Origin: Pirellulaceae bacterium
GTDB taxonomy: Bacteria > Planctomycetota > Planctomycetia > Pirellulales > Pirellulaceae
Length of the DNA: 64,000 bases
Assembly (NCBI GenBank): GCA_040219575.1
Contig: JAVJSD010000014.1
Location: 66,120 to 130,119, forward strand
Direction: 5' to 3'
The first letter of the stretch is position 1. The number at the start of each line of letters is the position of its first letter. Positions 33,038 to 64,000 of this stretch are shown in pieces. Below the pieces are notes generated by a model, which saw only the letters and a program-made list of their open reading frames with translations, had not been told where the DNA came from and ran no database searches. The translations under genes were made by a program, and so were the position numbers.

Positions 33038-34462
33038 ATGGCGCTGATGGAAGTCATCGACTACTTCGACTCTTCCAATCGCACGCTGGTTCAGCGGGTG
33101 CCGCCCGAGGGCTCCGCCGACATCAAACTCGGCGCCCAGCTGATCGTGCAACAGAACCAGGAGGCGGTGTTCTTCCGCGACGGCAAGGCGATGGACACCT
33201 TCAGCCCCGGCCGCTACACGCTGACCACCGCCAACGTGCCGATCATCACCCGGTTCTTGACGATCCCCTGGGACAAATCGCCGTTTCAGGCGCTGGTTTA
33301 CTTCGTCGGCAAGCAGACGTTTCTCGATCAACGCTGGGGCACCCGGCAGCCGATTCCGCTGTCGGATCCTGATTTCGGCATGGTCCGCCTGCGGGGCTTC
33401 GGCAAGTACTCGTTCCGCTGCGTCGATCCCGCGCTGTTGATCAACACGCTGGTCGGCACGCAGGGCAAATACTCCACCGATCAGGTGACGGCGTTCCTCA
33501 AAGACCTGGTGGTGGCCCGGATGGCCGACCTGCTGGGCACGATGAAGATCCGCGTGCTCGACCTGGTCGGCAAGTACGACGAACTCGCCTCCGCCACCCG
33601 CGTGAAGGTCGCCGAGGACTTCGCCAAGTACGGCCTGGAACTGGTCGATTTCTTCATCAACGCCATCACGCCGCCCGAGGAAGTGCAGAAGGCGATCGAC
33701 ACCCGCAGCAGCATGGGGGCCATCGGCGATCTGCAAGCCTTCACCATGTACCAGGCCGCCAACAGCATGGCCAAGATGGCCGAACATGGCGGCGGACAGG
33801 GTGGAGGCGCGATGGGCATGGGGATGGGCGCCGGCTTCGGCATGATGATGCCCGGCATGATCCAACAGGCAATGCAGGCTCGCCAGGGACAGGCCCCGGC
33901 GCCCGGACAGGCGCCGACGCAAGGCGCGCCGACGGCGCCTTCACCGGCGACCGGTGCGGCGGCCGCAGGCACGGCGGCGGGCGCCGGTGCAGCGGCAGGC
34001 GCTGCAGCGCAGGCCAGCGGTTTCGACTTCGCCGACCTCTCGCCCGTCGCGATAGCGAAGGACCCGCAATCGCTGGTTCGCGAAGTCGCCAAGACGGCCG
34101 GCTGGCAGATGGACGAAGAAGCGAGCGAAATCCGCATCACCGTTCCCATCGGAAGCTTGCGCAAGCAGATCGTACACGTTCGCTTCGACCGCAAGGACGA
34201 GGAAGGGCACGACATGCTCTCGATCTCCTCGGTCTGCGGGCCGATTTCCGAGCAGAACGCGATGCTGCTGTTGCGCTACAACACCAAACTGGTGCACGGC
34301 GCCTTCGCGGTGGAAAGCACCAGCGGCGGAGAAGTCGTCGTCGTGCAGGCCAACCACCTCGCCCAGGCCGCCGACGCCTTGGAGCTGACCCGCTCCATCA
34401 CCTCCATCGCCTGGCAGGCCGACAAGGTCGAGGAAAAACTCCTCGGCGGCGACTCATACTAG
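33038..34462 (+). CDS. SPFH/band-7-like domain protein with Gly/Met-rich linker and YbjN-like C-terminal domain
   Basis: N-terminal [62 protein letters not shown] block typical of the SPFH-like (PF13421-type) family. Low-complexity [16 protein letters not shown] linker. The family assignment is by eye. Confidence 0.55.
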
Positions 34463-36316
34463 CCCCTAACCAAGCGAAGTTTCTGAGCCTCATTGGTCGG
34501 TTTTACGAAAAAACTCGAAAACTCTCGGCGGTTCTTGGGTAACTCAGGAGTGTAAGGCTTCCGAGTCGCCAACGCATGGAGGGTTTTCGAGTGAAGATCA
34601 AGGTAAAGCGAAAGTTGGATCGTTGCAAGCGTCGCATTCAGCGACGCTTGGACAAGACGGATAATCGTGGTTGCGAACGGCCGATGTTCACGGCTTCGAA
34701 TATCCATTACGAGATCTCCGACCGCACACGGGGCATCTCGGCTGGAGGCATTGGTTTGATTCACCTCCTGGTGAAGCACGTCGGATTGGTGGAGGCGATT
34801 GACGAGCACCTGCAACTGCTCAAGTGCCATCTTCCCTACCACGAATCCGATCATGTGCTGAACATCGCCTACAACCTGTTGGCGGGCGGGACCTGTCTGG
34901 AGCACCTGGAATTGCGACGCCAGGATGAGGTTTATCTCGACGCCCTGGGCGCCCGGCGGATTCCGGATCCCACCACCGCCGGCGACTTCTGCCGCCGCTT
35001 CAGCAGCGTCGACGTGCTCGCGCTGCAGGAAGTCTTCAACGAGACGCGAATCAAGGTCTGGAAGCAGCAAGACGACGCGTTCTTCCAACGGGCCGTCATC
35101 GACGCCGACGGCACGATGGTCGAGACCACCGGCCAGTGCAAACAGGGCATCGACATCAATCACAAAGGCCAGTGGGGATATCACCCGCTGATCGTCTCCT
35201 TGGCCAACACGGGCGAGCCGTTGTACGTGGTCAATCGTCGCGGCAACCGGCCGAGTCACGAGGGCGCTCACTTCTACCTCGACCAGGCCGTCGGCCACTG
35301 CCGGGCCGCCGGCTTTCGCGAGATCCTGCTGCGCGGCGACACCGACTTCTCGCAGACCGAGCATCTCGACAAGTGGGACGACGACGGCGTGAAGTTCGTG
35401 TTCGGGATCGACGCCACGTCGAAACTGTACGAATTGGCCGAGCAATTGCCGCTCGACGCCTGGCGACGGCTCAAACGCGAGCAGCAGGAACCGCCCTCCA
35501 AACCGCGAGCCAAGCCGGACAACGTGAAGCAGGAGATCGTCGAGCAACGCGAGTTCAACAACATCCGCACGGTCCGCGAGTACGTCGCCGAGTTCGACTA
35601 TCAACCGCACGCCTGCCGCAAGAAGTACCGCATCGTCGTGGTCTGGAAAGACCTGGAGGAGTCTCAAGGGCAAAAGAAGTTGTTCGACTACACGCGCTGC
35701 TTCTTCTACATCACCAACCTGCGGGAGCCGCCGGCGACGGTGGTCAAGGAAGCCAACGGCCGCTGCAACCAGGAGAACCACATCCAGCAATACAAACACG
35801 GCGTGCCGGCGCTGACGGCCCCGCTGGACAACCTGGTCAGCAACTGGGCCTACATGGTGATGGCGTGCCTCGCCTGGAGCCTGAAGGCCTGGGCGGCGTT
35901 GCTGCTTCCGGAGCATCCGCGTTGGCAGGAGAAGCACCGTCAAGAAAAGCAGACGCTGCTGCGAATGGACTTCGCCACCTTCCGCAATGCGTTGTTGAAC
36001 ATCCCCGCGCAAATCGTTCACACAAGCCGCCGCATCATCTACCGGCTGCTTGCGTGGAATCCCTGGCAAGACGTGTTCTTTCGCTTGCTGGATCAACTCG
36101 CCCTACCGCTACGATGCTGACGCATGCAACACGTGAAGTCGGAGTCTGGATGCTCCGATACCGCCGCCACGCCGAACCTTGAAACGCACGACCATGAGGA
36201 CACGACAACCCGATTCCCACCCCGCAGCCGCCGGCCGCGCCGCTAAAACTGCGCACCCCCGACTACACGAAAAACTAGCGAAAAAGCGTCGGGGGCTTCA
36301 CTTGATTTAGGCCTAG
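34459..36316 (+). mobile_element. IS1380-family insertion sequence (ends approximate)
   Basis: DDE transposase with the IS1380-type C-terminal block (GRCNQENHIQQYKHGVPAL). Candidate imperfect terminal inverted repeats ctagcccctaaccaagcgaag (34459) and cttcacttgatttaggcctag (ending 36316) match at 16 of 21 positions. The left end coincides with the stop codon of the SPFH gene. Confidence 0.6.
34576..36120 (+). CDS. IS1380-family DDE transposase
   Basis: 514 aa. Characteristic IS1380 motifs. Confidence 0.85.
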   Translation: MEGFRVKIKVKRKLDRCKRRIQRRLDKTDNRGCERPMFTASNIHYEISDRTRGISAGGIGLIHLLVKHVGLVEAIDEHLQLLKCHLPYHESDHVLNIAYNLLAGGTCLEHLELRRQDEVYLDALGARRIPDPTTAGDFCRRFSSVDVLALQEVFNETRIKVWKQQDDAFFQRAVIDADGTMVETTGQCKQGIDINHKGQWGYHPLIVSLANTGEPLYVVNRRGNRPSHEGAHFYLDQAVGHCRAAGFREILLRGDTDFSQTEHLDKWDDDGVKFVFGIDATSKLYELAEQLPLDAWRRLKREQQEPPSKPRAKPDNVKQEIVEQREFNNIRTVREYVAEFDYQPHACRKKYRIVVVWKDLEESQGQKKLFDYTRCFFYITNLREPPATVVKEANGRCNQENHIQQYKHGVPALTAPLDNLVSNWAYMVMACLAWSLKAWAALLLPEHPRWQEKHRQEKQTLLRMDFATFRNALLNIPAQIVHTSRRIIYRLLAWNPWQDVFFRLLDQLALPLRC

Positions 36317-36553
36317 ATTTGTCCAGACAGCGGCAGCCTGTGCGTGCGTTTGAAAGTAGTCTCGATCCTCCACAGAGATCGCGACATTATTGCCAGCAAG
36401 ATTTCGCAGGTAAGCCTTCACTCCACCCAATCCACCACTCCCGCCAGATGCTGCCATTTGGACGTTCAGATTGTGGTATTGGATAACGAGATTATCTAAC
36501 ACCCGATTATCAAGGCTGTTGTTGTTTCCTTCACAGACGAGATAGACGGACAT
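36275..36553 (-). CDS. mini-Toprim protein (DUF4435/OLD-like core; possibly C-terminally truncated by the IS)
   Basis: Toprim Glu in VYLVCEGNN and DxD in SVEDRDY. The last ~13 codons lie inside the candidate IS1380 right end. It overlaps the stop of the upstream ATPase. Confidence 0.45.
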   Translation of the reverse strand: MSVYLVCEGNNNSLDNRVLDNLVIQYHNLNVQMAASGGSGGLGGVKAYLRNLAGNNVAISVEDRDYFQTHAQAAAVWTNLGLNQVKPPTLFR

Positions 36554-37659
36554 TACTGTGGTCCCTCGGAACTCAGGTCATCCAAGCTTCCGAGGTCGAC
36601 GACAGAATCCGGGCGAACTGCATCACGCAGATATGGCGAATGGGTCGTGGCGATTATCTGATTGCCGTCACCCATTTGTGGAACAAGATGTAAGAGCTTT
36701 CGTTGCCATATGGGATGTTGATTGAGTTCTATTTCGTCGATCAGCACAATTGACTGGTGCATATGCTCAGCGACAAATCGAATCAGCAACAACAGCACCA
36801 TCTGTTCTCCGCTACTTAATCCGCTGTATGAGTATTCGTCACACCCATTACTAAAGAGGATGTCCAGCCCACCTCGATCGTCATCGCGGATTGGACCGAC
36901 GATTTCGTGCGGAGCGCAGACTCGTGAGTATCGTTGCTTGATTCGGTCAAAATCACTCACTTGCTGATCGCGATACGGCGGCACCAAAGATCGGACTGCC
37001 AGATCAAGGAGAATGGTTTTGGGATCACTCGTTCTTCGATCCTTCGTTCCCGTAGGCATCGTCCCGTGAATGATGTTCCAGACCCTTCGGGATACTGTCT
37101 TGGCGAATGCCGTACGCTGCTGATCGAAGGTGAAGACGCCTCCCACTTTCTCAAACCAATCCCAACCGACCCGTCGCGTCGAAAGCAAACGGGCGATCCG
37201 ATACCGCCCCTTTAGCAGGGTCCAGCCGAGGCCAGGTTCGCACGTGCTGTAGCCATGCTCCGAACGCCCCTCGGGATCCGGGTACTCCCAGGTCAGTGCA
37301 ACTTCCTGAGCGTTAGGCACTTCGTGCGGCAACTCGGCCAAATCAAATACGTGACGGACTGCTTCAATCTCGTCCGTCGTGAATCGAAGCCAACACGTAA
37401 CCTTGGCGTGCAAAGCCCCTCGACGCACCACTGCCCAAGGAGCCCGCACAAAGTGCCGTCGCAGCGTTGGCATTTGCAGGGTGGGGCCAATTGCGGCAGC
37501 AATTGCGTCGAGGATAGTCGTCTTCCCGCAGGTGTTGGGGCCGACCAAAAGAGAGAATTCGCGCACCCTACCCATGGCGTCGGTGAAATCCAACACGAGC
37601 GGTTGGCCCTCTCCTCCGAGATGACGAAAATTCTCAATTTGCACTCTTGCAAGCTTCAT
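36553..37659 (-). CDS. compact ABC-type ATPase (AAA_15/AAA_21-like, RecF/SMC-head-like)
   Basis: Walker A (GPNTCGKTT), ABC signature (SSGEQ), Walker B/D-loop (IVLIDEIELNQHP) and H-loop (IATTHSP). GC content is visibly lower than the backbone. Confidence 0.75.
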   Translation of the reverse strand: MKLARVQIENFRHLGGEGQPLVLDFTDAMGRVREFSLLVGPNTCGKTTILDAIAAAIGPTLQMPTLRRHFVRAPWAVVRRGALHAKVTCWLRFTTDEIEAVRHVFDLAELPHEVPNAQEVALTWEYPDPEGRSEHGYSTCEPGLGWTLLKGRYRIARLLSTRRVGWDWFEKVGGVFTFDQQRTAFAKTVSRRVWNIIHGTMPTGTKDRRTSDPKTILLDLAVRSLVPPYRDQQVSDFDRIKQRYSRVCAPHEIVGPIRDDDRGGLDILFSNGCDEYSYSGLSSGEQMVLLLLIRFVAEHMHQSIVLIDEIELNQHPIWQRKLLHLVPQMGDGNQIIATTHSPYLRDAVRPDSVVDLGSLDDLSSEGPQ

Positions 37660-38060
37660 GTTCCGCTCTCGGTTCCATGAAAAACATTCCATCCGAACAG
37701 TGTTTCCGACCATTCAGATTATCGACGTGGTACACCGGCACTGCAAGTTCGGTTTTGGAATCGCCGGCACGCTCAGGGCACATAGGCACGGCTCGGAAAG
37801 TCAACCGAGCGCCGACGTTACGAGCCTGCTGCCAATTCGGAGCATTGCCTTTTTCGGCAGTCCGACTAGCTAGTTCCAGTCTTACTCAGACAGCCATGCC
37901 ACGGCCGACGTTCACTCGGCACGAATGCTTGTCGGTTTGGTTAGCTGTCGGATGGGCAAATCGGCGGGTGTGAACCAGCCGGTCGAAACTATGCCGACTT
38001 TGAGCGGCGAAGAACGCCGGATTACTTGCTTCTGGCCCCCAGGATGGGTAGATTCGGCGG

Positions 38061-39011
38061 TTGCAGGACTCTCTACTTCGCGAACGCAGGGGTGCCTTCG
38101 GCGCAGCCAAGTCGGTTGACGACGTATTTCTGCTGGCCTCGATCTCCAAGCCAATCTTGGCGGCGGCCGTGATGAAGCTGTACGACGAGGGGAAGTTCGG
38201 CCTGGACGATCCAGTGCAGAAGTTTCTCCCGGACTTCGTCGGCGACGGCCGCGAGAAGATCACGATGCGGCAATTGCTGACGCACGTCTCGGGTCTGCCG
38301 GACCAGTTGCCCGAGAACTCCAAGCTCCGCGCGAGCCATGACCCGCTCTCGGAGTTCGTCGATGCGGCCATTCGCACGCCGCTGTTGTTCGAGCCGGGAA
38401 CTCGCTACAGCTACTCAAGCATGGCCATCCTGCTGGCGAGCGAGGTTGCGCAGCGGATCACCGGCGCCGACTTTCCGACGCTTGTCGACGAGGCCATCTA
38501 CAAACCTCTGGAGATGCGGCATTCAGCCATGGGCCTGGGGCGGCTGAAACTGGAAAACCTGATGCGCTGCCAGGTCGAACAGGCCGCGCCCGAGTCGGGT
38601 GCCGGCGACCCGGCGGCAAAGAAGTGGGACTGGAACAGCCCCTACTGGCGAAAGCTGGGCGCTCCATGGGGCGGCGCCCACGGTTCGGCCCAGGACGTTG
38701 CCCGCTTCCTGGCGGAGTTTCTCCATCCGAGCGGCAAGACGCTCAAGCCGGAGACGGCGCGGTTGATGATCACCAACCAAAACCGCCCGGGCATCCGCTC
38801 GCGCGGGCTGGGCTTCGACGTCGGCACGAATGCTGGGAGCCCCGGGTGCAGCGAAAAGACGTTCGGTCACGGCGGCTCGACCGGCACGCTTTGCTGGTCC
38901 GACCCGGCGACCGACACGATCTGCGTCGTACTCACCACCCTGCCAACGCGGGCGGCCAATCCGCACCCACGCAACGTGGTGTCGGATCGGGTTGCGGAAG
39001 CGGTTGGGTGA
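38061..39011 (+). CDS. serine hydrolase, beta-lactamase/transpeptidase-like family (apparently 5'-truncated)
   Basis: S-x-x-K motif (ASISKPIL) only ~27 aa from the start. An in-frame stop 9 nt upstream and no signal peptide. TTG start in the track. Confidence 0.6.
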   Translation: MQDSLLRERRGAFGAAKSVDDVFLLASISKPILAAAVMKLYDEGKFGLDDPVQKFLPDFVGDGREKITMRQLLTHVSGLPDQLPENSKLRASHDPLSEFVDAAIRTPLLFEPGTRYSYSSMAILLASEVAQRITGADFPTLVDEAIYKPLEMRHSAMGLGRLKLENLMRCQVEQAAPESGAGDPAAKKWDWNSPYWRKLGAPWGGAHGSAQDVARFLAEFLHPSGKTLKPETARLMITNQNRPGIRSRGLGFDVGTNAGSPGCSEKTFGHGGSTGTLCWSDPATDTICVVLTTLPTRAANPHPRNVVSDRVAEAVG

Positions 39012-39268: not shown

Positions 39269-39355
39269 ATGCAATCCTTGTCGATGGACTTGCGGGAGCG
39301 GGTAATTGCGGCGTACGACAGGGGCGATCGACGAAGACGAAGAACCGATCGCTGA
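39269..39355 (+). pseudogene. IS630/Tc1-family transposase N-terminal stub (28 codons)
   Basis: MQSLSMDLRERVIAAYDRG matches the conserved HTH N-terminus of IS630-family transposases, then runs into RRRRRTDR and a stop. AAGGAGA Shine-Dalgarno site upstream. Confidence 0.5.
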
Positions 39356-41896: not shown

Positions 41897-42391
41897 ATGG
41901 CAATCAAACGAATCGAGCCAGGTCCTGGCCAGGAATCGGTCTGGGATTATCCCCGGCCACCGCGGCTAGAAGCCTGTTCTGAGCGCATCAAGGTCATTGT
42001 TGACGACGTGGTCGTTGCGGAGAGCGACCAGGCGAAACGCGTGTTGGAGACGAGCCACCCTCCGGTCTATTACCTCCCGCCGACTGACATCCGCATGGAT
42101 CTGCTGGAGTCGTCCGAAAGGCAATCCTGGTGCGAATGGAAGGGCAAGGCGCGCTACTTCGATGTCGTCGTTGGTGAGCGGAGGATTCCGAATGCGGCCT
42201 GGGCGTACCCGTCGCCAACGCGTGCGTTCGAGTCGATCCGCGATCATCTGGCCTTCTATCCACACCTGATGGATGCGTGCTTCGTCGGCGAAGAACGAGT
42301 GCTGGCTCAGGCCGGTGGATTCTACGGAGGCTGGATCACCAGCAATGTTGTCGGTCCCTTCAAAGGCGAGCCGGGCACGCGAGGATGGTAG
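41897..42391 (+). CDS. DUF427 domain protein
   Basis: YYLPPTDIRMDLL and CEWKGKARYFDV blocks typical of DUF427. Confidence 0.7.
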   Translation: MAIKRIEPGPGQESVWDYPRPPRLEACSERIKVIVDDVVVAESDQAKRVLETSHPPVYYLPPTDIRMDLLESSERQSWCEWKGKARYFDVVVGERRIPNAAWAYPSPTRAFESIRDHLAFYPHLMDACFVGEERVLAQAGGFYGGWITSNVVGPFKGEPGTRGW

Positions 42392-43943: not shown

Positions 43944-43963
43944 CGCCGGCCAGGCGACTTTGC

Positions 43964-54156: not shown

Positions 54157-56489
54157 TGGACGTCAATCGATTGTGGGCGAAGAGCAAGCCGTACGGATGG
54201 GACGACGACGACCCACGAGTCGAGTCGCTCTACCTTCCGCAGCATCTACGCGACGTTCACGACGCCGCCAGCCAAATCCTCGAAACGACGGGAGATTCAC
54301 AGCTTCAATCGCTCGGCCTGGCCCCGAGACTTTGGCGAGACCGATTCCGACGCGTATTGCTTCTCGCCGCGGCCGTTCACGATCTCGGCAAATGTGGAAG
54401 TCACTTTCAACTTATGCTGAAGGGTCAAGGGCGCCAAGCATTGCGGCACGAGTGGGTCAGTTTATTGATTCTGGACACTCCAGGTTGGACGAGTTGGCTC
54501 GTCTCCGCCGTGGATGGTGAAGCGATCGACTTAGAGATTGTCCGTTGGGCCGTAGCGGGCCATCATCCCAGATACGATCGAACAGCCCCGCCGACATCAA
54601 ACGACGGGCCTGCCACGCTTCATCTACCACTGGATCACCAAGATATCTCCGAAACGCTCAAATGGCTGGGTAGTACGTTCTCCCTTCACGGGACGCCTTC
54701 GCAGGAACCACGCACCGTTTCCCTGACGTTTGATCCCGGCAACGCCATCGATGCGCTCGCTGATCGACACTACGCTGCTGAAGACTTGTTTGACGACTTT
54801 TCGTCCGAAATGCGTCGATTTGTCGCTGCCGTCAAGAATAGCCTTGTCTCCGCCGACATCGCGGGCTCAGCGTTGCCGCGGCTAGCGGATGCTCAAGCGA
54901 AGCGGCACTGGCTCCGTGACGTACTCAACCAGGAAGGTCTGCCGACGTCCAACGACTACCGACGAATTACGGCCATGCGACTCGGCCGCTGCGAGCCAGC
55001 GGCAGTCGAAGGGAAACTCCGTCGATTTCAGAAAGAAGTAGGCGCGTCGCCGGCCCGAGTGACCTTCGTTCGGGCTGGTTGCGGAACCGGAAAGACTATC
55101 GCTGCGTATTGGTGGGCAGCCAACGTCTGCGCTGGCCGGCGATTGTTCGTCTGCTATCCGACCACAGGCACGGCGACCGCCGGCTTCGCCGACTATCTGA
55201 TGGATCCGGAACTTTCCCAAGCGGTGAAGACCGACCTGATTCACGGTCGCCGTATAGTTGACTTTCGCATGCTGCAGGCAGACGAGGATCGCAATGAGTC
55301 TGTGTCGCGCATCGCATCACTCGACATGTGGCGGACGCCGGTCGTCTCCAGCACCGTCGATACGGTGCTCGGTCTCATCCAAAATAACCGTCGCGGCCTG
55401 TGCAATTGGCCCGCCATCGCACAAGCAGGATTCGTCTTTGACGAAATCCACAGCTACGACGACAAGCTGTTCGACGCCCTGCTTCACTTTCTCGCGACCA
55501 TTCGTGGTGCGCCGATCTTGCTGATGACCGCCAGCCTACAGGTTCGTCGACTGGAGGCGATTCGATCGGTGCTTGCGGCGGCCGACGACCCACTTGCCGA
55601 GATTCCCGGGCCAGAGACGCTGGAAAGAGTTCCGCGGTATCAGCAGCGCCGCGACGTCAAAGCCAAGGACACGAAGCAAATCGACGCGATGATCCATGAG
55701 GAGGTCTCGCAGGGTGGAAAAGCTTTGTACGTTTGCAACACGGTGACCGATGCATTGCGAACAGCAGATCGGCTTGCGAAGTTGAAGCCCTTTGTCTACC
55801 ACAGTCGCTTTCGCTATCGCGATCGCGTTGAACGACACAAGAGCGTTGTCGAGGCGTTTCGACGCAAAAGCAAGTCTTCCGCCTTGGCGATTTGCACCCA
55901 AGTAGCGGAGATGTCCCTTGACCTCTCCGCGACACTCCTCGTGACCGCATTGGCGCCTGTGCCGTCGTTGATTCAGCGGCTTGGGCGCTTGAATCGTATC
56001 GAAAGGCCGGTGGAGCCACGACCATTCGTCATCGTCGAACCCCTCGGCGCCGATGGCAAGTACTCTCCACTTCCATACGAAGAAGGCGACTTGAAATCGA
56101 GCAAGAGTTGGCTTGAGGCAATCGGTGATGAACCTTGTTCTCAGCGCGACTTGGCCGACGCATGGGAGCGCCTCGCGGAAGGCGATTCGCCGTGTGCTCC
56201 GCCGCGTTGGCAGAGCGCATGGCTAGACTATGGGCCAGCTACTCCCGTCCTCGAACTTCGTGACGGATCACCCACACTTACGGTCATTCTCGAGGAAGAC
56301 TGGCCCCGGCTCTGCTCCCCCGACAATGCGACCGCATTGGCCGAGGTCGCCCTGCCCATGCCCATCCGCCCCGGCGACGACTGGCAGCTAAGAGATCGTG
56401 AAGACCGGCCACTGGAGTTCGCCGGAGTACCGGTCGCCAAGGCGGACAAGATCGACTATGACCCTCAACGAGGTGCGCAATGGCTGTAG
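54153..56489 (+). CDS. cas3: Cas3 (HD nuclease fused to DExH helicase)
   Basis: N-terminal HD motif (AAAVHDLGK), Walker A (GCGTGKT), DEIH box (FVFDEIH), and a helicase C-terminal domain. Confidence 0.9.
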   Translation: MMDVNRLWAKSKPYGWDDDDPRVESLYLPQHLRDVHDAASQILETTGDSQLQSLGLAPRLWRDRFRRVLLLAAAVHDLGKCGSHFQLMLKGQGRQALRHEWVSLLILDTPGWTSWLVSAVDGEAIDLEIVRWAVAGHHPRYDRTAPPTSNDGPATLHLPLDHQDISETLKWLGSTFSLHGTPSQEPRTVSLTFDPGNAIDALADRHYAAEDLFDDFSSEMRRFVAAVKNSLVSADIAGSALPRLADAQAKRHWLRDVLNQEGLPTSNDYRRITAMRLGRCEPAAVEGKLRRFQKEVGASPARVTFVRAGCGTGKTIAAYWWAANVCAGRRLFVCYPTTGTATAGFADYLMDPELSQAVKTDLIHGRRIVDFRMLQADEDRNESVSRIASLDMWRTPVVSSTVDTVLGLIQNNRRGLCNWPAIAQAGFVFDEIHSYDDKLFDALLHFLATIRGAPILLMTASLQVRRLEAIRSVLAAADDPLAEIPGPETLERVPRYQQRRDVKAKDTKQIDAMIHEEVSQGGKALYVCNTVTDALRTADRLAKLKPFVYHSRFRYRDRVERHKSVVEAFRRKSKSSALAICTQVAEMSLDLSATLLVTALAPVPSLIQRLGRLNRIERPVEPRPFVIVEPLGADGKYSPLPYEEGDLKSSKSWLEAIGDEPCSQRDLADAWERLAEGDSPCAPPRWQSAWLDYGPATPVLELRDGSPTLTVILEEDWPRLCSPDNATALAEVALPMPIRPGDDWQLRDREDRPLEFAGVPVAKADKIDYDPQRGAQWL

Positions 56490-58177
56490 CAAGGTCGATA
56501 AAGTGCAGCGAGGCTTTGGCGCCGGCGGATATGTCGTTTGAGTTGTTCGCTCCTGGCATGACCCCACTCCACCGCGCCGGACTCGGCGGGCTGGCAGCAA
56601 CTCTACTGGCGATGACTCGTCGGCGGAAACTGGGTCTGATTTCCCAAGACGATCTGCCAGGTGACTGGTCCAGCGGCGAGCCCTGGACGATTAAGCCGGA
56701 TCGCTTAGTTCTCCATTTCCGGGAACCAGAAGGAGCGGCGGACTACTTGCGCAAGTTGTTCGCTTTCGCATTCTCCATAAAGGACAAACTGATCGACTTG
56801 CCCGGTATCTACCGCGATGAATTGAACCGAGCCGTGCGCGCGGAGTTGCAACTCGGCCTGACATTGACGTTTCTTCAATTTGGTCCACATCGGAAGTTAG
56901 AGCCAGAAACGAAACTCACTTTCGATGTCACCGGCGATGGGACTGCCGAGATCGCCGTCGGCATCCGCGCCTGTCATGGATATCTCCATCAGGATGCTGT
57001 CGAACGACTCAAACTCTTCGACAAGAAGGGCCGCTTGAACTGGAAAGCCACCGAGACTCCCAGCGCCTTCAATCCGGGCGCCGTCGTGCGACACAACGCG
57101 TTTGGAACAAGTACGCGTATTGAAGAATTGCCACCCGCAGGAATCGCGGCCTGCTTTGCCATCGTAGGAGCACTTTCACTGGCGGTTAACCGAGGCGTGG
57201 GGGTGCTGTTGATCCCAGAAGTTGACGACTTAGAGAGGTTCGCTCGATCTCGACCGCGTATGACTCCTACAACTCTGCGCGAGTGTCGCATTAGTGCGGC
57301 GAGCGACGCCGCAATGCAGGCAGAAGTTCGCTTGCGGGCAAGAGGACAGATGCAGCGGCATGGACTCACGGGGATCTACACCATGCAGCTACGCCCTACG
57401 CAGTGGAACGAAAAGCAGAAGACTCGCGTTGCTACGCTGCACATTCCTTGCTGCACAGATCCAACGCTGGAGCGATTCAATTTGGCGTTGAGGCACCTGC
57501 CGCCACGCATCTACTCGTATGCGGAGCCCGTTACCGGAGGACGAGGGCGAAGGAGCGACACCCCGCAGTTTGTCTGGCGCTGGAAAGACAGTCTTGTTCG
57601 TCCGCTCGTCGCCGACAATCTTGCGACTGGCCGCAGATGGTACGACGGGTTCGCGGACTTGATGACAGGGCAAGATGGTTCTCACGTCCCAATCCATCAA
57701 CGGATTTCATTCGAAGCGGAGGGTTTGTACGCGATGCTCAGTGAGAAACAAGGCGGCATGACCGAAGAGGAAGAACGAAACTTGATTGGAGCGATCCATC
57801 GAGCTGTCTACATGCAGCGAGGCAAGATCTACGCTGACACGATGGGAAAACGGCCTGAGGCCGGCGGGGCAAAACCGAGCCAAGCCTGCTTTAACCGTTG
57901 GTCGCGATTGATGGAGCGACTGCGGCTGGGGTTGATCAACTCCAAGACCGCGGAACAGACGCGTCGCCTTCTCCAGGACGACATCTTTGGCCGGGCCGGC
58001 ACGATTCCGGAGCTCAAAGACCACGAAAAACTCCGCCAAGTCCATCGACTGATATTTCACGATGACTGGCGAAGGCTACGAGACCTCACCATGCTCGCTG
58101 TGGTCAGCTATAAAGCGCCTGCGGACAGGGCCCCCATCCCCGGCGAAGACGATACGGAAATCGAGAACGATTCCTGA
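56480..58177 (+). CDS. cas8: Cas8 large subunit (type I-B / MYXAN-like Cas8)
   Basis: 565 aa between cas3 and cas7. N-terminal MTPLHRAGLGGL block. Assigned by position and size. Confidence 0.65.
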   Translation: MAVARSIKCSEALAPADMSFELFAPGMTPLHRAGLGGLAATLLAMTRRRKLGLISQDDLPGDWSSGEPWTIKPDRLVLHFREPEGAADYLRKLFAFAFSIKDKLIDLPGIYRDELNRAVRAELQLGLTLTFLQFGPHRKLEPETKLTFDVTGDGTAEIAVGIRACHGYLHQDAVERLKLFDKKGRLNWKATETPSAFNPGAVVRHNAFGTSTRIEELPPAGIAACFAIVGALSLAVNRGVGVLLIPEVDDLERFARSRPRMTPTTLRECRISAASDAAMQAEVRLRARGQMQRHGLTGIYTMQLRPTQWNEKQKTRVATLHIPCCTDPTLERFNLALRHLPPRIYSYAEPVTGGRGRRSDTPQFVWRWKDSLVRPLVADNLATGRRWYDGFADLMTGQDGSHVPIHQRISFEAEGLYAMLSEKQGGMTEEEERNLIGAIHRAVYMQRGKIYADTMGKRPEAGGAKPSQACFNRWSRLMERLRLGLINSKTAEQTRRLLQDDIFGRAGTIPELKDHEKLRQVHRLIFHDDWRRLRDLTMLAVVSYKAPADRAPIPGEDDTEIENDS

Positions 58178-58210
58178 ACATACCTTAACATACAGCAAGA
58201 GATCGATACC

Positions 58211-59131
58211 ATGACTCTACATGTCTTTGCGAGTATCGCGACAGGCTACGGAACGGCGGGCAACAATCGCGGCGAAACCGAGGGCAATACAACGACGCTG
58301 CAAAAGTTGATCTGGCATGGTCAGCCGCATACGACCGTTAGCGCCGAGGCGATCCGCTTCGCATTGCGGCGGCTTCTAACATGCAAAGAACAAGCTGGCA
58401 CGAATCGAACCTGGAACGAAGCGACTCGCAGGAACGACTGGCAGGACGCCGAATTCAAAAAGTGGCGCAAAGAGGAAGCCGGCTTCATCGACGACGATCT
58501 ACTTGGATTCATGTCCGCCGAAGCCGCGAAAGACGAAAACACAAAGGGATCCGCCAACGTACGGCGTGCCGTGCTGGAAATGACGCGCGCCGTCTCTCTT
58601 ACACCTTGGCCGGGCGACGTTGTCTTCAACGCTGCCTCGCCGCGCGCAACCGCCTCTGCCGCGAAAGGCGAGGGCGACAATCCTGTGCCTTATATGGCCG
58701 AGGTCCACGCCACTCGCTACCAGTATGGACTTGCGATGACACCGACTGCACTTCGCGACCGCTCTCGGGCAGCGAAGGGACTTGAGGCAGTTGCTTCATT
58801 GGGGACTGTCGCGGGCAATCACGCCAGATTCCTGTTCGACTTCGCGCCTGAAGCCATCGTCATTCGATTAACGGAGGATCCCGCTCCTCGCTTACTTTAT
58901 TGCTTCGATACGGCGGATGGCGGAAAGACCATCGGGGCAGAGACGCTTGTCAAGAGAATTCAGTCTGAGGACATCAATCCAGACGAACTGATTCTTGGCG
59001 TGGTCGACCTCGACGCCTCTCTCGCGGATCAGCTCAAGACGGCGGGCGTGAACCAGATCCACGGCGTTCGACGCGCAGTAGAACTGGCATGCAAGCGAAT
59101 CAACGAGCACTCAGACGTGAAAGGCGGCTGA
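58211..59131 (+). CDS. cas7: Cas7 backbone subunit
   Basis: Cas7-type N-terminus (GYGTAGNNRGE...), AIRFALRR block, 306 aa. Confidence 0.8.
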   Translation: MTLHVFASIATGYGTAGNNRGETEGNTTTLQKLIWHGQPHTTVSAEAIRFALRRLLTCKEQAGTNRTWNEATRRNDWQDAEFKKWRKEEAGFIDDDLLGFMSAEAAKDENTKGSANVRRAVLEMTRAVSLTPWPGDVVFNAASPRATASAAKGEGDNPVPYMAEVHATRYQYGLAMTPTALRDRSRAAKGLEAVASLGTVAGNHARFLFDFAPEAIVIRLTEDPAPRLLYCFDTADGGKTIGAETLVKRIQSEDINPDELILGVVDLDASLADQLKTAGVNQIHGVRRAVELACKRINEHSDVKGG

Positions 59132-59132
59132 T

Positions 59133-59798
59133 ATGATCGGCGTCTATGTCACGGTTCCGATCGCCTGTTTTCGCAAAGGCCTCGCGCGCGAGTTTTTGGA
59201 GACAGAAATCCTTCCTCCACCAGCGACTTGTTATGGCTTCCTGCTCTCGCTTGTCGGAGAAGCCGATCGTCGGCGGCACGTCGCCTGTCGGATCGCGCCT
59301 GCCGTGATTAGGCGTGAACTGCGCGTGAGCACAGTCCTCCGAACCGTCTGGCGGCTGAAACACCGCGATCGCGATCCTGGCGCATCGGGCAACATGCGTC
59401 CAGACTTCCAGCAACTACTCACCGGACTCGAATTGGTCATATGGCTGGATTCAAACGAAGAGATAAGTAGCGGCCCAGCGCTCGAGGAACGAGTTCGTCA
59501 CGCTCTGGCTTTCCCTTCCTCTATCACTCGATACGGAGGCTTGAGTCTCGGTGAGAGCACCCACCTCATCGACGAGGTCTCCGTCATCAACGACAGCTTC
59601 CGACTAGAACGAGATGAACCGTCGTGTCAAATGTTCCTCACTTCCCAACGTGGGCCGCTAACGCTGCCAGTCTGGGTCGACCACGTGGGGTCAGCGGGCA
59701 CACGATATGCAACAGGAGAAATCGAGGTTGTCCCTGCCTTCACCTCCCCCGCGGCAAGCCGCATGTCGCAGATCGACAGAGCGTCTCAGTCGGAATAA
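59133..59798 (+). CDS. cas5: Cas5
   Basis: Cas5 hallmark N-terminus VPIACFRKGLAREFLETEILPPPATCYGFLLSLVG. Starts 2 nt after cas7. Confidence 0.75.
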   Translation: MIGVYVTVPIACFRKGLAREFLETEILPPPATCYGFLLSLVGEADRRRHVACRIAPAVIRRELRVSTVLRTVWRLKHRDRDPGASGNMRPDFQQLLTGLELVIWLDSNEEISSGPALEERVRHALAFPSSITRYGGLSLGESTHLIDEVSVINDSFRLERDEPSCQMFLTSQRGPLTLPVWVDHVGSAGTRYATGEIEVVPAFTSPAASRMSQIDRASQSE

Positions 59799-59813
59799 CG
59801 CAAGGAATGGAAA

Positions 59814-61532
59814 GTGCGTGCTCGAATTCCGCCCCACTCTGATTTGACAGCCGAACACACTCCTAATAGCAACGACGCCAGCCCCGCCGAGCCGCCGGTG
59901 CGCGTGATGGCACTACACGCCCTCCTTTACTGCGAGCGGCTCTTTTACCTTGAAGAGGTCGAGGAGATCCGCGTGGCCGACGGGGCGGTGTATGCGGGTC
60001 GCCGACTGCACGACAACGTGGTTCCCCTCGAGGACGAAACTCCCGAGTATCGATCCATAGAACTGGGCAGCGACGACTGGGGCATTTTGGGCAAGGCCGA
60101 CGCCGTGCGCAGGCGCGATGGAAAGTGGGTCGCGTACGAACACAAACGCGGCCGCTGTCGGCGCGATGAAAACAATCGCCCCGCCGCCTGGCTGAGCGAC
60201 CGCATGCAGGCAATCGCCTACGCGGTTCTGATAGAGGAGGCGCTTGGCGAGCCCGTGCTACAATCGCGGGTCCGCTATCACGCCGACAACGTCACTGCGT
60301 TCGTCGATATCAACGATCAGGCTCGCCAGGATCTGCGCAGCGCCGTCGAACGAGCCCGGTCGTTGCGGCGCACCACGCAGCGCCCGCCTGTTGCCGAGAA
60401 CGAAAACCTCTGCCGCCGCTGTTCGCTGGCGCCGGTCTGCCTGCCGGAGGAGGAACGATTGGCGGCGGCGGTCAAAGCAGAGACCCCACCGCCTGCGCGA
60501 CTGTTTCCTTCGGATCGGCGCAAGCAATCGCTGCATCTACTATCGCCCCGCACTCGGCTTGGGCGCAGCGGCAAGACGCTGGTGGTGACCACCGACGAGG
60601 GCAAGGAAAAAGTTCCCGTCAACGACATTGACTCCGTTGTTGTGCATGGTTTCGCCCAGGTGACCACCCAAGCGATTCATCTCTGCGCCAGCCACGACGT
60701 TTCTATCGCGTGGCTCACGGGCGGCGGCAGGTTTGCAGCGGGTACGGCGGCCTCAGCCGGCCGAGTTCAGCAGCGACTGCGACAGTATCACGCACTGGCC
60801 GACGACGCGTTCCGGCTTAAACTGGCACGGCAGCTTGTCCACGCAAAGGTTGAGACGCAACTGCGATACTTGTTGCGGGCAACTCGAGGCAACCAGGCCG
60901 CCCGTGAAGCTTCCCGGCCAGAGATCGAGCAGATTCGAGAGGCGATAAAACGCATTGTGAAGGCGACTTCAATCCCGACTTTGCTCGGATTGGAAGGAAT
61001 CGCCGCCAAGGCGTATTTCGCCTGCGTGCCGCGACTGCTCGGCGACCAGGCCGACGACAAGTTGCGGCCGTCTGGCCGGTCGAAACATCCGCCTGGTGAC
61101 CGCTTTAACGCGGCGCTCAGCTTTGGTTACGCCCTTGTGCAGTCACTCGTTATGCGCAGCGCGCTGGCCGTCGGCCTGGAGCCGGCGTTCGGCTTCTACC
61201 ACCAGCCGCGCACGGCAGCCCATCCTCTCGTGCTGGACGTGATGGAGTTGTATCGCACGCCACTCTGGGAGATGCCCTTGATAGGCAGCATCAATCGCGG
61301 GCAATGGCAGCCCGACGAGGATTTTTCGGTGACGCGCCAGCAGGTCTGGCTTTCGGAGTCGGGCCGTAAGAAGGCTTTGCAATTGTTCGAGCAGCGCTTG
61401 CAGGAATCGTACCGGCACCCGTACACCGGGCAGTCGCTGACCTACGCCCGGCTGGTCGAGCTGGAGGTGCGGTTGCTGGAAAAGGAGTGGACCGGCTGTC
61501 CAGGAGTCTTCGCCCAGATGCGATTGAGGTGA
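59814..61532 (+). CDS. cas4-cas1: Cas4-Cas1 fusion protein
   Basis: N-terminal Cas4 (ALHALLYCERLFYLEEV, and the C-terminal Fe-S cysteine cluster CRRCSLAPVC), followed by a Cas1 integrase domain. Confidence 0.85.
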   Translation: MRARIPPHSDLTAEHTPNSNDASPAEPPVRVMALHALLYCERLFYLEEVEEIRVADGAVYAGRRLHDNVVPLEDETPEYRSIELGSDDWGILGKADAVRRRDGKWVAYEHKRGRCRRDENNRPAAWLSDRMQAIAYAVLIEEALGEPVLQSRVRYHADNVTAFVDINDQARQDLRSAVERARSLRRTTQRPPVAENENLCRRCSLAPVCLPEEERLAAAVKAETPPPARLFPSDRRKQSLHLLSPRTRLGRSGKTLVVTTDEGKEKVPVNDIDSVVVHGFAQVTTQAIHLCASHDVSIAWLTGGGRFAAGTAASAGRVQQRLRQYHALADDAFRLKLARQLVHAKVETQLRYLLRATRGNQAAREASRPEIEQIREAIKRIVKATSIPTLLGLEGIAAKAYFACVPRLLGDQADDKLRPSGRSKHPPGDRFNAALSFGYALVQSLVMRSALAVGLEPAFGFYHQPRTAAHPLVLDVMELYRTPLWEMPLIGSINRGQWQPDEDFSVTRQQVWLSESGRKKALQLFEQRLQESYRHPYTGQSLTYARLVELEVRLLEKEWTGCPGVFAQMRLR

Positions 61533-61535
61533 ACG

Positions 61536-61832
61536 ATGGCGGCCAAGCAATGGCACCTGATTACGTACGATGTGCGTGACCCCAAGCGACTGCGGCGGGT
61601 TGCCAAGCTGCTTGAATCGTACGGCACACGGGTGCAATACAGCGTGTTTCGCTGCCGCCTGGACGCCCTGGCGCTGGAAAAGTTGACTTGGGAGTTGAAC
61701 CAACTGATGGATGAGGTCGACGACTTGTTGGTGATTCCCCTCTGTCGCCAATGCGCGGGCAAAGTGCCGACGCATTCGACGGGCGACCAATCACACTGGG
61801 TGGACGCTCCACCGGCGTTTCGGATTGTGTAG
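61536..61832 (+). CDS. cas2: Cas2
   Basis: MAAKQWHLITYDVRDPKRLRRVAKLLESYGTRVQYSVF is typical of Cas2. Confidence 0.85.
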   Translation: MAAKQWHLITYDVRDPKRLRRVAKLLESYGTRVQYSVFRCRLDALALEKLTWELNQLMDEVDDLLVIPLCRQCAGKVPTHSTGDQSHWVDAPPAFRIV

Positions 61833-62187
61833 CGTTCAGCTTCGTTGGGCCATCCAACGCATCGCAGCGAGTGTGCAAGCTCAGGCGGCAGGTCTTGCAG
61901 CGTCATGAGATCACAAATCATGCATCTCCCCGTGGTGGAGAACTATGGCGCGTATTCTGGGCGAACGCTTTGCCCCTCCGCAATTTGCATTTATATCGAG
62001 AATCAATCGAGCGTGAGCGTCATTGGCGGAAACGCAGACTTCCTTCAGGCTATAGCTTTGCGTCGTCGCTTCGCCTTCACAGCCATCGCCGACCACTGTT
62101 CGCCAGCACGAAACTTCGTCGGCTTTGCTCAATGCCTGAATTTGCCTTGCGCAAACCCAGTCAGTATAACGACTTGCACTTGGTGCC

Positions 62188-64000
62188 GTGTCCGCTTCGT
62201 TGATGCCGAAAGGCGTTGAGCACATGCCGCGTGCCGTTGATGCGGCTTGGCGTTGCAGGTGTGTCCGCTTCGTTGATGCCGAAAGGCGTTGAGCACTTGA
62301 GCACGGCCCGCGAGACCACGCAGCTGATGCGTGTCCGCTTCGTTGATGCCGAAAGGCGTTGAGCACGAAGACAAATGCCCTGAGCGGTTCCACGCGAGCC
62401 CGGTGTCCGCTTCGTTGATGCCGAAAGGCGTTGAGCACACGCCGCCCAAACGACCGACAAGAACGCGAAACACTGGTGTCCGCTTCGTTGATGCCGAAAG
62501 GCGTTGAGCACTTGAGCATCGGGCGATTTCAGGAAAACGGCAGCAGCAGTGTCCGCTTCGTTGATGCCGAAAGGCGTTGAGCACTACCAACCGCTCATCC
62601 CGAACGCGGCGCAGCAGACGTGTCCGCTTCGTTGATGCCGAAAGGCGTTGAGCACTGCTTCGAGCTATTCATCGTCGCGGCGTTGATCGAGGTGTCCGCT
62701 TCGTTGATGCCGAAAGGCGTTGAGCACTCCCCCATGGCAGCGTTGTATCGGCGGAGGAATTGTGTCCGCTTCGTTGATGCCGAAAGGCGTTGAGCACTCG
62801 TACCGCCGCATCAGTTCATGGGCGAGTGCTTCGTGTGTCCGCTTCGTTGATGCCGAAAGGCGTTGAGCACTTGAACCACAAGCTGCTGCTAGCCGTGTTC
62901 GCCGATGTGTCCGCTTCGTTGATGCCGAAAGGCGTTGAGCACTAGTGGGCGGTCTCGATCTTCGCCGGCGAGACCAAGTGTCCGCTTCGTTGATGCCGAA
63001 AGGCGTTGAGCACCTGGGGATGCCTACCGCCGCTGCCCGCGATGGTGTGTCCGCTTCGTTGATGCCGAAAGGCGTTGAGCACTTCAAAGCCGGATCGCCG
63101 AAAGCAACGAGCAATTGTGTCCGCTTCGTTGATGCCGAAAGGCGTTGAGCACTTTCTGACCGTTCGCTCGATCGACAAGGGGCTCGCTGTGTCCGCTTCG
63201 TTGATGCCGAAAGGCGTTGAGCACAGGCACGACGCGCCGCCGAATTTGGATTGCGCCGTAGTGTCCGCTTCGTTGATGCCGAAAGGCGTTGAGCACCGAC
63301 CGGGGAGGCATCCACACTGCAAGACCGTTTCGGTGTCCGCTTCGTTGATGCCGAAAGGCGTTGAGCACCTGCACCTACGAAAAAAGGGCCGACGCGAATA
63401 CGCGCCGTGTCCGCTTCGTTGATGCCGAAAGGCGTTGAGCACCTTTGATAGGTGCTGGTCATGTCGGGTTGCGGTAAGTGTCCGCTTCGTTGATGCCGAA
63501 CGGCGTTGAGCACCAGTCATTACCGACCCAGTATGGCCGAACGCCCCGGTGTCCGCTTCGTTGATGCCGAAAGGCGTTGAGCACTCGGGAACCGTGACCT
63601 TGTAGTCCTGTGATGCCGTGTGTCCGCTTCGTTGATGCCGAAAGGCGTTGAGCACCCTTCGTTGCAAGCGTTGCCTGCGGATCGCTCGGTTGTGTCCGCT
63701 TCGTTGATGCCGAAAGGCGTTGAGCACAAGAATATCCGGACACGTTCGACGTCGAAGCGATCGCGTGTCCGCTTCGTTGATGCCGAAAGGCGTTGAGCAC
63801 GAACGCTTCCCGTTTGGCCCCCCGGCGCATCCCAGTGTCCGCTTCGTTGATGCCGAAAGGCGTTGAGCACATTCAATTACTCCCTGGGGGTCGCTTGGTT
63901 GGTTCGTGTCCGCTTCGTTGATGCCGAAAGGCGTTGAGCACTTTGACCAGAAAGAGCGCGAGCTGCTCAAGCGGCTCGCGTGTCCGCTTCGTTGATGCCG
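62188..64000 (+). CRISPR. CRISPR array, 36-bp repeat GTGTCCGCTTCGTTGATGCCGAAAGGCGTTGAGCAC, at least 26 repeats (last truncated by the window), 35-37-bp spacers
   Basis: Repeats and spacers counted directly in the sequence, period ~71.6 bp. About 350 bp of AT-richer leader lies between cas2 and the first repeat. One variant repeat at 63478 (AAAGG to AACGG). Transcription direction is inferred from leader position only. Confidence 0.95.

Follow-up and report, generated by a model that had tools for sequence, protein, structure and literature searches.

Likely piecemeal assembly of a defence hotspot in a Pirellulaceae chromosome

Defence islands, or hotspots, are clusters of unrelated immune systems that are accompanied by remnants of mobile elements. 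Here we describe a region of this kind on contig JAVJSD010000014.1 of a Pirellulaceae bacterium (GCA_040219575.1), of which a stretch of 64,000 nucleotides (nt; the window) was analysed, the region under study being 34459-64000. A sequence-only reading had proposed that one ~30-kb island is appended to a planctomycete-like backbone, beginning at an element of the insertion sequence (IS) family IS1380. We consider it likely instead that the sequence from 34.5 to 64 kb is a chromosomal variable region of the Pirellulaceae, that is, a defence island or hotspot, which was built piecemeal and not in one event. At least four foreign cassettes would have come to lie among host-like genes, with junctions that cut several of the genes: an AriA-AriB pair, a REase-ARP gene behind a HEPN gene, an Avs7-like gene, and a WYL-regulated type I-MYXAN CRISPR-Cas locus that would have brought a Toprim fragment with it. 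A resident IS1380 copy would later have been inserted at the stop codon of an SPFH gene, duplicating CTAG. Within ~27 kb the defence content comprises CRISPR-Cas, an Avs-type STAND gene, PARIS-type genes and HEPN, REase and PIN nucleases. Judged from their sequences, the type I-MYXAN system and the Avs7-like Cap4-STAND protein look functional, and several nuclease genes of the region are orphans.

Composition and gene content of the region

The mean GC content is 0.640 in 1-34458 and 0.591 in 34459-64000 (by 1-kb bins, 0.640 +/- 0.031 versus 0.591 +/- 0.032; Mann-Whitney p ~1e-6). The drop that had been noticed by eye is thus real, but it amounts to ~5 points and not to the 10-15 estimated then (from 65-68% to 50-58%). 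Nor does it set in at IS1380, as had been claimed, given that the transposase gene of this element has a GC content at third codon positions (GC3) of 0.82 and a backbone-like codon usage (z -0.3; z expresses the synonymous codon choice of each gene, scored against 23 backbone genes with mean 0.336 and standard deviation 0.089). Distinct composition is found only in sub-segments, at 36.3-38.0, 39.4-40.9, 44.5-49.2 and 54-60 kb. The tetranucleotide distance to the left half, which is 0.189 +/- 0.024 (maximum 0.247) within the left half itself, peaks at 0.27-0.35 in 35-41, 44-50 and 54-60 kb and is down to the level of the backbone (0.18-0.23) at 41-45 and 48-54 kb. Sliding-window GC and tetranucleotide analysis therefore confirms that the composition of the window is non-uniform, with three to four atypical peaks and backbone-like troughs between them.

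Codon usage is bimodal. The AriB stump, AriA, REase-ARP, the STAND gene and cas3, cas8, cas7 and cas5 have z values of -4.6 to -7.2, and these foreign genes alternate with host-like ones of +0.4 to -1.7, namely IS1380, the beta-lactamase remnant, cupin, ARPP-1, the vWA-like remnant, PIN and HEPN, and also Toprim and WYL. The acidic ORF at 51135 (z -4.8) and the renalase-like gene (z -4.0) likewise count among the strongly foreign ones. The earlier description of the region as mosaic was therefore apt, and so was the statement that the right half is richer in defence and mobile genes and on average compositionally atypical. The same reading had assigned a backbone-like composition to the DUF427, oxidoreductase and cupin genes in the middle, which is true of cupin (z -0.6) and only partly of DUF427 (z -2.9) and the oxidoreductase (z -4.0).

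A second difference between the two halves concerns a REP-like hairpin with the structure GTAGCGGAAGTC-nnnn-GACTTCCGA. The query GTAGCGGAASTCNNNRRASTTCCGA, with up to 3 mismatches allowed, returned 12 units at 7 loci (8.4, 9.5, 14.9, 16.6, 18.9, 27.3 and 32.8 kb), where shuffled sequences are expected to give 0. As had been noted, all 7 loci fall within 8.3-32.8 kb and none occurs later in the window; the search of the whole window found none past 32825 and none before 8363, so that the first 8 kb lack the hairpin as well. If placement were uniform, the probability that all 7 loci lie in the left 54% would be ~0.013, which is suggestive and not overwhelming. The hairpins often form inverted pairs ~40 nt apart (8363/8403, 9496/9535, 27288/27326 and 32760/32801), which resemble BIME-type arrangements.

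Table 1. Features of the region from the left IS1380 junction to the end of the window (aa, amino acids; for cas genes, NCBIfam bits versus curated cutoffs)
Feature	Position	Strand	Basis and remarks
Left CTAG target-site duplication of IS1380	34459-34462		Includes TAG stop of SPFH gene (33038-34462); reads CATACTAG / CCCCTAACC
IS1380-family IS, 1850 bp	34463-36312	+	NCBIfam transpos_IS1380, Pfam DDE_Tnp_1_4; transposase open reading frame (ORF) 34576-36120
Right CTAG target-site duplication of IS1380	36313-36316		Sequence read
AriB-like (PARIS effector) remnant, N-terminal 80 aa	36314-36553	-	Homologue family; codon z -7.2
AriA/PtuA-like ABC-type ATPase, 386 aa, apparently intact	36553-37713	-	AAA_15/AAA_21; codon z -6.1
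Beta-lactamase/PBP-family gene, 5'-truncated	38061-39011	+	Pfam Beta-lactamase; codon z -0.7 (host-like)
Possible IS630-type transposase N-terminal remnant, ~20 aa, MQSLSMDLRERVIAAYDRGD...	39270-39355	+	Read by eye; weak
REase-ARP (PD-(D/E)xK) nuclease, 509 aa	39391-40920	-	Pfam REase-ARP; codon z -6.9
HEPN-domain protein, 247 aa, Rx4H motif RCQLVH	40923-41666	-	NCBI name of exact protein; codon z -1.7
DUF427 protein	41900-42391	+	Pfam NTP_transf_9/DUF427 E 2e-38, full profile; codon z -2.9
Renalase-like FAD oxidoreductase with in-frame TGA 43358-43360	42440-43443	+	PDB renalase match; codon z -4.0
PIN_3 toxin-type nuclease	43515-43943	+	Pfam PIN_3 E 6e-20; NCBIfam TIGR00305 42 bits vs 29; codon z -1.5
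Cupin-domain protein, host-like	43964-44458	-	Pfam Cupin_2 E 3e-6; codon z -0.6
Avs7-like antiviral STAND protein (predicted), 1545 aa, single gene	44535-49172	-	Profile and AlphaFold2 models; codon z -6.8
ARPP-1 domain protein, intact	49386-50423	-	Pfam ARPP-1 E 9e-30; codon z +0.4
vWA-like ARPP-1 partner, only residues 328-533 of 533-aa form left	50410-51027	-	tblastn with long partners; codon z -0.7
Acidic protein ORF, foreign codon usage	51135-51710	+	No Pfam/NCBIfam/PADLOC match; codon z -4.8
Stand-alone DnaG-type Toprim fragment, 139 aa	51723-52142	+	NCBIfam dnaG; codon z -1.3
HTH-WYL-WCX regulator, cas-operon-associated kind	52347-53396	+	Pfam/PADLOC; gene call from L001; codon z -1.7
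Type I-MYXAN cas operon	53530-61832	+	NCBIfam cutoffs, Pfam
cas6/cmx6	53530-54156	+	cas6_cmx6 172 vs 98.85
cas3 (HD + helicase)	54153-56489	+	cas3_core 146 vs 102; cas3_HD 52 vs 43
cas8a1/cmx1 (DevT)	56480-58177	+	csx13_N 153.9 vs 80.85
cas7/DevR	58211-59131	+	Cst2_DevR 135 vs 73
cas5/cmx5 (DevS)	59133-59798	+	cas5_cmx5 172.9 vs 111.5
cas4-cas1 fusion	59814-61532	+	cas1_MYXAN 473.8 vs 358.05
cas2	61536-61832	+	cas2 59 vs 25
Leader region, cas2 to first repeat	61833-62187	+	Called leader by position only
CRISPR array	62188-64000	+	25 full 36-nt repeats (GTGTCCGCTTCGTTGATGCCGAAAGGCGTTGAGCAC) and a 26th cut by the window end

IS1380 itself is readily accounted for. Its transposase scores 284.1 bits with NCBIfam transpos_IS1380 (NF033539; cutoff 180) and matches Pfam DDE_Tnp_1_4 at E 1.4e-40, and its terminal inverted repeats are imperfect (12/17 nt), so that a transposase above the curated cutoff, a length of 1.85 kb, short imperfect inverted repeats and a 4-bp target duplication all agree with the family. 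Because CTAG stands on both sides and the codon usage is host-like, the element arrived later, as a simple insertion at the SPFH stop codon that produced a separate 4-bp duplication, and does not mark the edge of an island. Excising it in silico restores the junction between the SPFH stop and the AriB remnant. A contig of an independent Logan assembly of the same sample (L082) ends exactly 30 nt inside the element, at 34492, which equals k-1 on the assumption of a 31-mer Logan assembly; since such an assembly would end in this way at repeated sequence, IS1380 is probably multicopy in the genome. A blastn-level search of the plasmid collection returned no similar element. Two IS signatures had been reported for the region, and IS1380 is one of them; the second amounts only to the ~20-aa IS630-like remnant at 39270-39355, recognised by eye and without an HMM match in Pfam.

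The genes next to IS1380 appear to be what is left of a PARIS system, in which an AriA ATPase is combined with an AriB Toprim effector. The ATPase matches Pfam AAA_15 (E 2.3e-18) and AAA_21 (E 4.5e-17) and, in PADLOC, PtuA (2.4e-22), AriA (2.1e-19) and AriAB (9.6e-18). Because the PtuA (Septu) models score as well as or slightly above those of AriA, the assignment to PARIS rests on the partner gene. This downstream gene follows directly in the same orientation, its start codon beginning with the base that ends the AriA stop codon, and its 80 aa represent the beginning of a ~290-300-aa family. By itself the stump has no PADLOC match and only a non-significant Pfam match (E 0.06). A phmmer search of the full representative library, however, returned 52 homologues, many of them 227-311 aa long and aligned only over their first ~80 residues, and eight of these longer homologues match the AriB half (~436-674 of 694) of PADLOC AriAB, with E down to 3e-12. 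These homologies identify the ATPase and the stump as a putative PARIS-type pair with a truncated effector; as no full-length AriB Toprim effector is present, the pair is most likely dead. The PARIS/OLD-like pair of the earlier reading thus exists, in degraded form. IS1380 was considered as the cause of the truncation and rejected, since the ORF is no longer than 81 aa, ending at the SPFH stop, once the IS is taken out; the truncation therefore predates the insertion.

Right of the PARIS-type pair follows a beta-lactamase-family ORF that matches Pfam Beta-lactamase at E 5e-58 over profile positions 47-315 of 329. The ORF begins right behind a stop codon, alignments to class C and AmpH models begin at model residues 53-97, and approximately the first 50-80 codons are missing. 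A truncated host-type gene had been predicted in the region, and this ORF, with its lost 5' end and host-like codon usage, is that gene.

The next two genes, HEPN and REase-ARP, had been taken for a pair. Both are real. The REase-ARP nuclease matches its Pfam family at E 3.6e-15 (profile 24-270 of 270) and PDDEXK_13 at E 2e-6. NCBI lists the exact HEPN protein as 'HEPN domain-containing protein'. Of its 595 homologues, the 120 closest share 59-73% identity with it; the models of Pfam, NCBIfam and PADLOC gave no match, and a direct sequence search of the PDB gave chance-level matches only (best E 0.07). The start codon of REase-ARP abuts the HEPN stop codon, but this juxtaposition joins a host-like gene to a foreign one and the pairing is not conserved elsewhere. 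At 2 genomic and 46 metagenomic HEPN loci no REase-ARP homologue was found, and the neighbours vary by locus: in contigs L090 (4446-6735) and L091 the HEPN homologue is the third gene, after genes for an ADP-ribosylglycohydrolase (ARG) and a rhodanese-type phosphatase (R-P), and in contig L092 it lies behind genes for a methyltransferase and a ResIII helicase. A conserved two-gene system of HEPN and REase-ARP was accordingly rejected. The predicted PIN gene is confirmed, its TIGR00305 score lying above the cutoff, and no antitoxin gene was recognised for it. It is plausible from their sequences that the HEPN, REase-ARP and PIN genes act as stand-alone nuclease effectors.

The largest foreign gene of the region encodes the STAND protein, in which a Cap4-type nuclease (residues ~1-260) is followed by a STAND NTPase with Walker A motif GAAGRGKS (292-299) and an alpha-solenoid sensor (~650-1545). 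Its family comprises >500 proteins that vary very little in length, mostly from Planctomycetota and also from Pseudomonadota and Syntrophaceae metagenome-assembled genomes (MAGs), and its best homologue is only 47% identical. A direct search of the PDB with the single sequence gave no match. A profile of 35 sequences, however, matches SeAvs7 (PDB 9N00/9N01/9YIX) at E 6.8e-23 over residues 49-648, which span the C-terminal part of the nuclease, the NTPase and the following helical region. Among the 35 homologues the motifs GAAGRGKS and LILDQLD are conserved; G292, G295, G297, K298, D361 and D364 are invariant, as are D49, Q63 and C64 of the nuclease region, with K65 nearly so. The AlphaFold2 model of residues 1-270 (pLDDT 86.8) matches Avs3 (8DGC; E 2.8e-6, TM 0.53) and also Cap4 (7YIB), HamA (8ZUE) and LmuA, and the model of the sensor (pLDDT 87.6) is an all-alpha solenoid. 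Taken together, the profile and the models indicate that the protein is homologous to SeAvs7 over the nuclease and NTPase and would adopt a Cap4 fold, so that the earlier call of an Avs-like STAND protein holds and can be sharpened to Avs7-like.

SeAvs7 is a Cap4 nuclease-STAND-TPR protein that binds the phage major capsid protein, tetramerises and cuts DNA (10.64898/2026.01.04.697583). By homology, the solenoid sensor of the protein described here would bind a phage protein, upon which oligomerisation of the NTPase and cleavage of DNA by the Cap4 nuclease would follow. The Salmonella enterica protein is similar in length (1523 versus 1545 aa) and has the same order of Cap4 nuclease, STAND NTPase and long helical sensor. 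The two differ in that the sensor gives no significant sequence match and in that the PADLOC match is to PDC-M54A (1.4e-28), a candidate family and not a named Avs. A homologue with 36% identity over 95% coverage, annotated 'hypothetical protein', is encoded on the 34-kb plasmid pEP7_04 of Isosphaeraceae bacterium EP7 (CP151671.1, L140), directly downstream of repA. Because this full-length plasmid homologue is a single gene beside repA, the STAND gene appears to fit a mobile, stand-alone system.

The CRISPR-Cas locus at the right end had been called complete, and it is: cas6, cas3, cas8, cas7, cas5, a cas4-cas1 fusion and cas2, all 7 of them above the curated cutoffs, precede an array. Like the Cmx/Dev locus of Myxococcus xanthus (dev), the type I-MYXAN system has the full gene set and an array of 36-nt repeats, and nothing unusual was found in it; a WYL regulator and a primase fragment precede it. 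The repeats are identical except for one single-nucleotide polymorphism, the spacers are 33-38 nt long, and no spacer matches elsewhere in the window. The codon z of cas3, cas8, cas7 and cas5 is -4.6 to -5.2, and a Logan contig (L088) is 100% identical over the operon. By homology, Cas6-processed CRISPR RNAs would guide a Cas8-Cas7-Cas5 complex, which would recruit Cas3, with Cas4-Cas1 and Cas2 adding spacers. The regulator matches Pfam WCX (3e-20), WYL (4.5e-18) and HTH_11 (1e-8) and the Cas-associated WYL model of PADLOC (2.4e-37). The Toprim fragment matches NCBIfam dnaG at E 1.5e-17 over model positions 237-349 of 414 only, and Pfam Toprim_2 at E 7.5e-10.

Origin of the region

In places, changes of composition in the region coincide with broken genes. 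Besides the isolated Toprim fragment, four genes are damaged: of AriB only 80 aa are left, the beta-lactamase-family gene lacks its 5' end, the first 327 codons are missing from the vWA-like ARPP-1 partner, and the renalase-like gene carries a nonsense codon. A single ~30-kb island appended from IS1380 onward does not agree with these findings, as the IS is a simple insertion, the cassettes alternate with host-like genes, several modules are remnants, and no integrase, tRNA or flanking repeat is found. A Pfam scan of candidate genes (from ORFs >=100 aa, 34.4-62 kb) detected no integrase or recombinase, only the DDE transposase of IS1380; no tRNA or tmRNA gene is present in the window according to ARAGORN, and Rfam gave no match. 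Likewise, no att-like repeat longer than 10 nt brackets any cassette within the window, beyond whose edge the right end lies, and only chance 10-mers were seen. The region resembles known defence islands in its several unrelated immune genes, its atypical composition and the IS copies and gene fragments at its junctions. It differs from them in that neither an integrase nor a tRNA gene nor conserved core genes on its flanks were identified and in that about half of the modules are degraded.

Several observations weigh against this interpretation. The array runs off the window, so that the right boundary of the region lies past 64000. We infer acquisition from composition and gene breakage only, no empty site or alternative occupancy having been seen and the relatives being distant, and the atypical codon usage could partly reflect low expression and not foreign origin. 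The sensor of the STAND protein reaches an independent E of only 13 in the profile match to SeAvs7, and Foldseek gives it only generic solenoids such as importins and CAND1 at TM <0.3, with 9N00 not among the 50 best matches listed; the two leader-proximal spacers and the repeat of the CRISPR array have no exact match in IMG/VR; and the truncated vWA-like copy may still work, given that a 256-aa form occurs elsewhere.

A scan of genome contigs with the SPFH protein gave, as its best relatives, 80 loci in Pirellulales and other Planctomycetota (65-80% aa identity), and none of these has another window gene nearby, including 10 left-side backbone genes. Because the relatives share no gene order even for the backbone genes tested, the synteny comparison is uninformative. 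By exact-protein look-ups the organism was found only in sample SRR26147846, where its Logan contigs are fragmented; for the cupin and AriA proteins no record was returned. Over 42913-51404 and 51496-62214 these independent contigs match the window at 100% identity, and the internal junctions in these two stretches are therefore not assembly artefacts. Besides the end within IS1380, the contigs break at 32311, 42913 and 51404-51496, with no obvious repeats there; coverage of the organism in SRR26147846 is probably low.

Three other explanations were weighed. One horizontal transfer could have delivered the whole ~30 kb with IS1380 as its left bound, a few host genes being gained later. The lower mean GC of the right half, its lack of REP-like elements and its concentration of defence and mobile genes would all follow from such an event, but we regard it as unlikely, since the 4-bp duplication and host-like codon usage of IS1380 speak for a later insertion and not for an end, host-like segments at 38-39, 43.5-44.5 and 49.4-51.0 kb split the foreign ones, two of these segments hold a host-type or widely conserved gene that has lost its 5' end, and neither an integrase nor a tRNA gene or flanking repeat was found. 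About equally improbable in our view is that the region is native, namely an accessory region of long vertical descent, with a GC3 lowered by weak expression and relaxed codon selection. The STAND, HEPN and ARPP families are indeed all common in Planctomycetota, and missing synteny is no argument where the order of the tested left backbone genes is not conserved among relatives either. However, abrupt switches of composition coincide with gene truncations, for example at ~38.05 and ~51.03 kb; the best STAND homologue is 47% identical, compared with 92% for the adjoining ARPP-1; the STAND family is plasmid-borne in another planctomycete; and the intergenic spaces are free of REP-like elements.

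An error of assembly or binning, by which unrelated contigs were joined at a repeated IS1380 copy and the 'island' stems from another organism, is less probable still. It would explain why the independent Logan assembly breaks exactly at IS1380 and why composition differs across the element. Yet CTAG stands at either end of the IS, as it would after a single simple insertion into uninterrupted target DNA, codon usage of the left type recurs right of the IS (beta-lactamase remnant -0.7, cupin -0.6, ARPP-1 +0.4, vWA-like remnant -0.7), and the best relatives of ARPP-1, STAND and HEPN are all in Planctomycetota. Piecemeal assembly of a chromosomal hotspot remains the reading that we prefer. It shows how such a hotspot builds up and decays in a poorly studied phylum, through adjacent insertion of cassettes, cut neighbours and the late arrival of an IS, and it records both an Avs7-like Cap4-STAND sensor and a type I-MYXAN CRISPR-Cas system from a Pirellulaceae genome. 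The analysis corrects the idea of a single 30-kb acquisition and does not overturn current understanding; its value lies mostly in annotation.

ARPP-1, its vWA-like partner and ARG-centred systems

The genes between the STAND gene and the Toprim fragment had been described as a vWA pair and counted as cargo of the island. Two genes are present, but they are an ARPP-1 gene and a 5'-truncated vWA-like partner, both of host-like composition. ARPP-1 homologues in other planctomycete contigs are 83-92% identical, and those of 83-90% identity are always preceded by a vWA-like partner of 522-533 aa, with a 14-nt overlap in the closest ones, and the two ORFs of the window share this overlap. When the 522-533-aa partners (L083, L086, L087) were aligned by tblastn, the window sequence was 76-88% identical and the homology ended sharply at 51027-51039. 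The remnant has lost its first 327 codons and keeps a DVSAS MIDAS-like motif; it matches Pfam VWA_CoxE only at E 0.0036 and nothing in a direct sequence search of the PDB. The short, 256-aa form of the partner is found in a complete genome (L139). The GC content of the cassette tracks that of each host in contigs L083, L084, L086, L087 and L139, which have a GC of 0.54-0.59 and share no neighbours, and the cassette is more conserved than the backbone SPFH protein (65-80% aa). With its host-like composition and wide conservation in planctomycetes, a 'vWA pair' as island cargo was rejected; in sequence comparisons ARPP-1 and its partner behave like a conserved planctomycete gene pair.

REase-ARP and ARPP count among the accessory families of predicted ARG-centred anti-viral systems (Iyer et al. 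2022, PMC9503650). The ARPP contexts given there do not include a vWA-like partner, and no HEPN component is mentioned for these systems (PMC9503650). The window resembles them in having REase-ARP, ARPP-1 and a WYL regulator, and the HEPN family follows ARG and R-P genes in contig L090. It differs in that REase-ARP and ARPP-1 lie 8 kb apart with opposite composition and in that ARPP-1 is paired with a vWA-like protein. Moreover, a tblastn search of the window with the ARG protein of L090 gave nothing below E 0.8, and no Pfam ADP_ribosyl_GH match was found among the proteins scanned; with the R-P protein of L090 the best hit (E 0.029) was an unrelated backbone gene. Because neither an ARG nor a phosphatase gene was found, the window encodes no ARG-centred system. 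We can only tentatively suggest, and think it rather doubtful, that ARPP-1 and its vWA-like partner form a distinct, conserved two-gene system of Planctomycetota and that the HEPN family is likewise an unrecognised accessory effector of ARG systems. If true, either reading would add components to a predicted immune pathway, and the ARPP-1/vWA-like cassette and the HEPN genes beside ARG and phosphatase genes are modest leads of this kind.

Renalase-like gene and backbone

The renalase-like protein matches PDB 4ZCC/3KKJ at E 5e-68, its residues 7-306 aligning with residues 4-302 of 336. Past the in-frame TGA the frame continues for 27 more codons (CGGPRVEGAYLSGRALAEAV; beginning CGGPRVEGAYLSG...) to a stop at 43441-43443. 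The TGA stands where we would presumably expect the Trp of a C-terminal GDW motif, and from this sequence context it appears to be a recent nonsense mutation or a sequencing error. A selenocysteine codon is unlikely, even though the genome encodes SelA.

The left part of the window is planctomycete-like, as had been recognised. It carries genes for Maf, CysNC, a PAPS-reductase-family protein, sulfatases, SelA, a PSCyt/PSD multidomain protein, DUF1552, LeuC and SPFH, of which the PSCyt/PSD, DUF1552 and sulfatase genes point to this phylum. The best relatives of the SPFH protein are all from Pirellulales or other Planctomycetota, and a Pirellulaceae MAG is the NCBI source name, which is also the source in the NCBI records of the exact STAND and HEPN proteins. 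The SPFH/Band_7_1 protein has a long linker rich in Ala, Gly, Pro, Gln and Met and a C-terminal region with a weak match to the chaperone-like CesT_Tir_1 (E 0.003).

Three smaller features lie within this backbone. A PD-(D/E)XK_3 gene (PF13366, E 2e-40; 4273-4668, minus strand) sits between cysNC and the PAPS-reductase-family gene and is bracketed by 45-nt inverted repeats that are 93% complementary. Local GC is 0.58, the tetranucleotide window is the most atypical of the left half, and the segment 4218-4759 looks like a small inserted element. At 11687-11879 a low-GC, 93-nt tandem duplication (2.1 copies, 77% matches) lies within an ORF without Pfam match (11566-12216, minus strand). Finally, a 34-nt inverted repeat pair, 91% complementary and with arms 156 nt apart, occupies 18290-18513 in a dip of the backbone GC (0.59).

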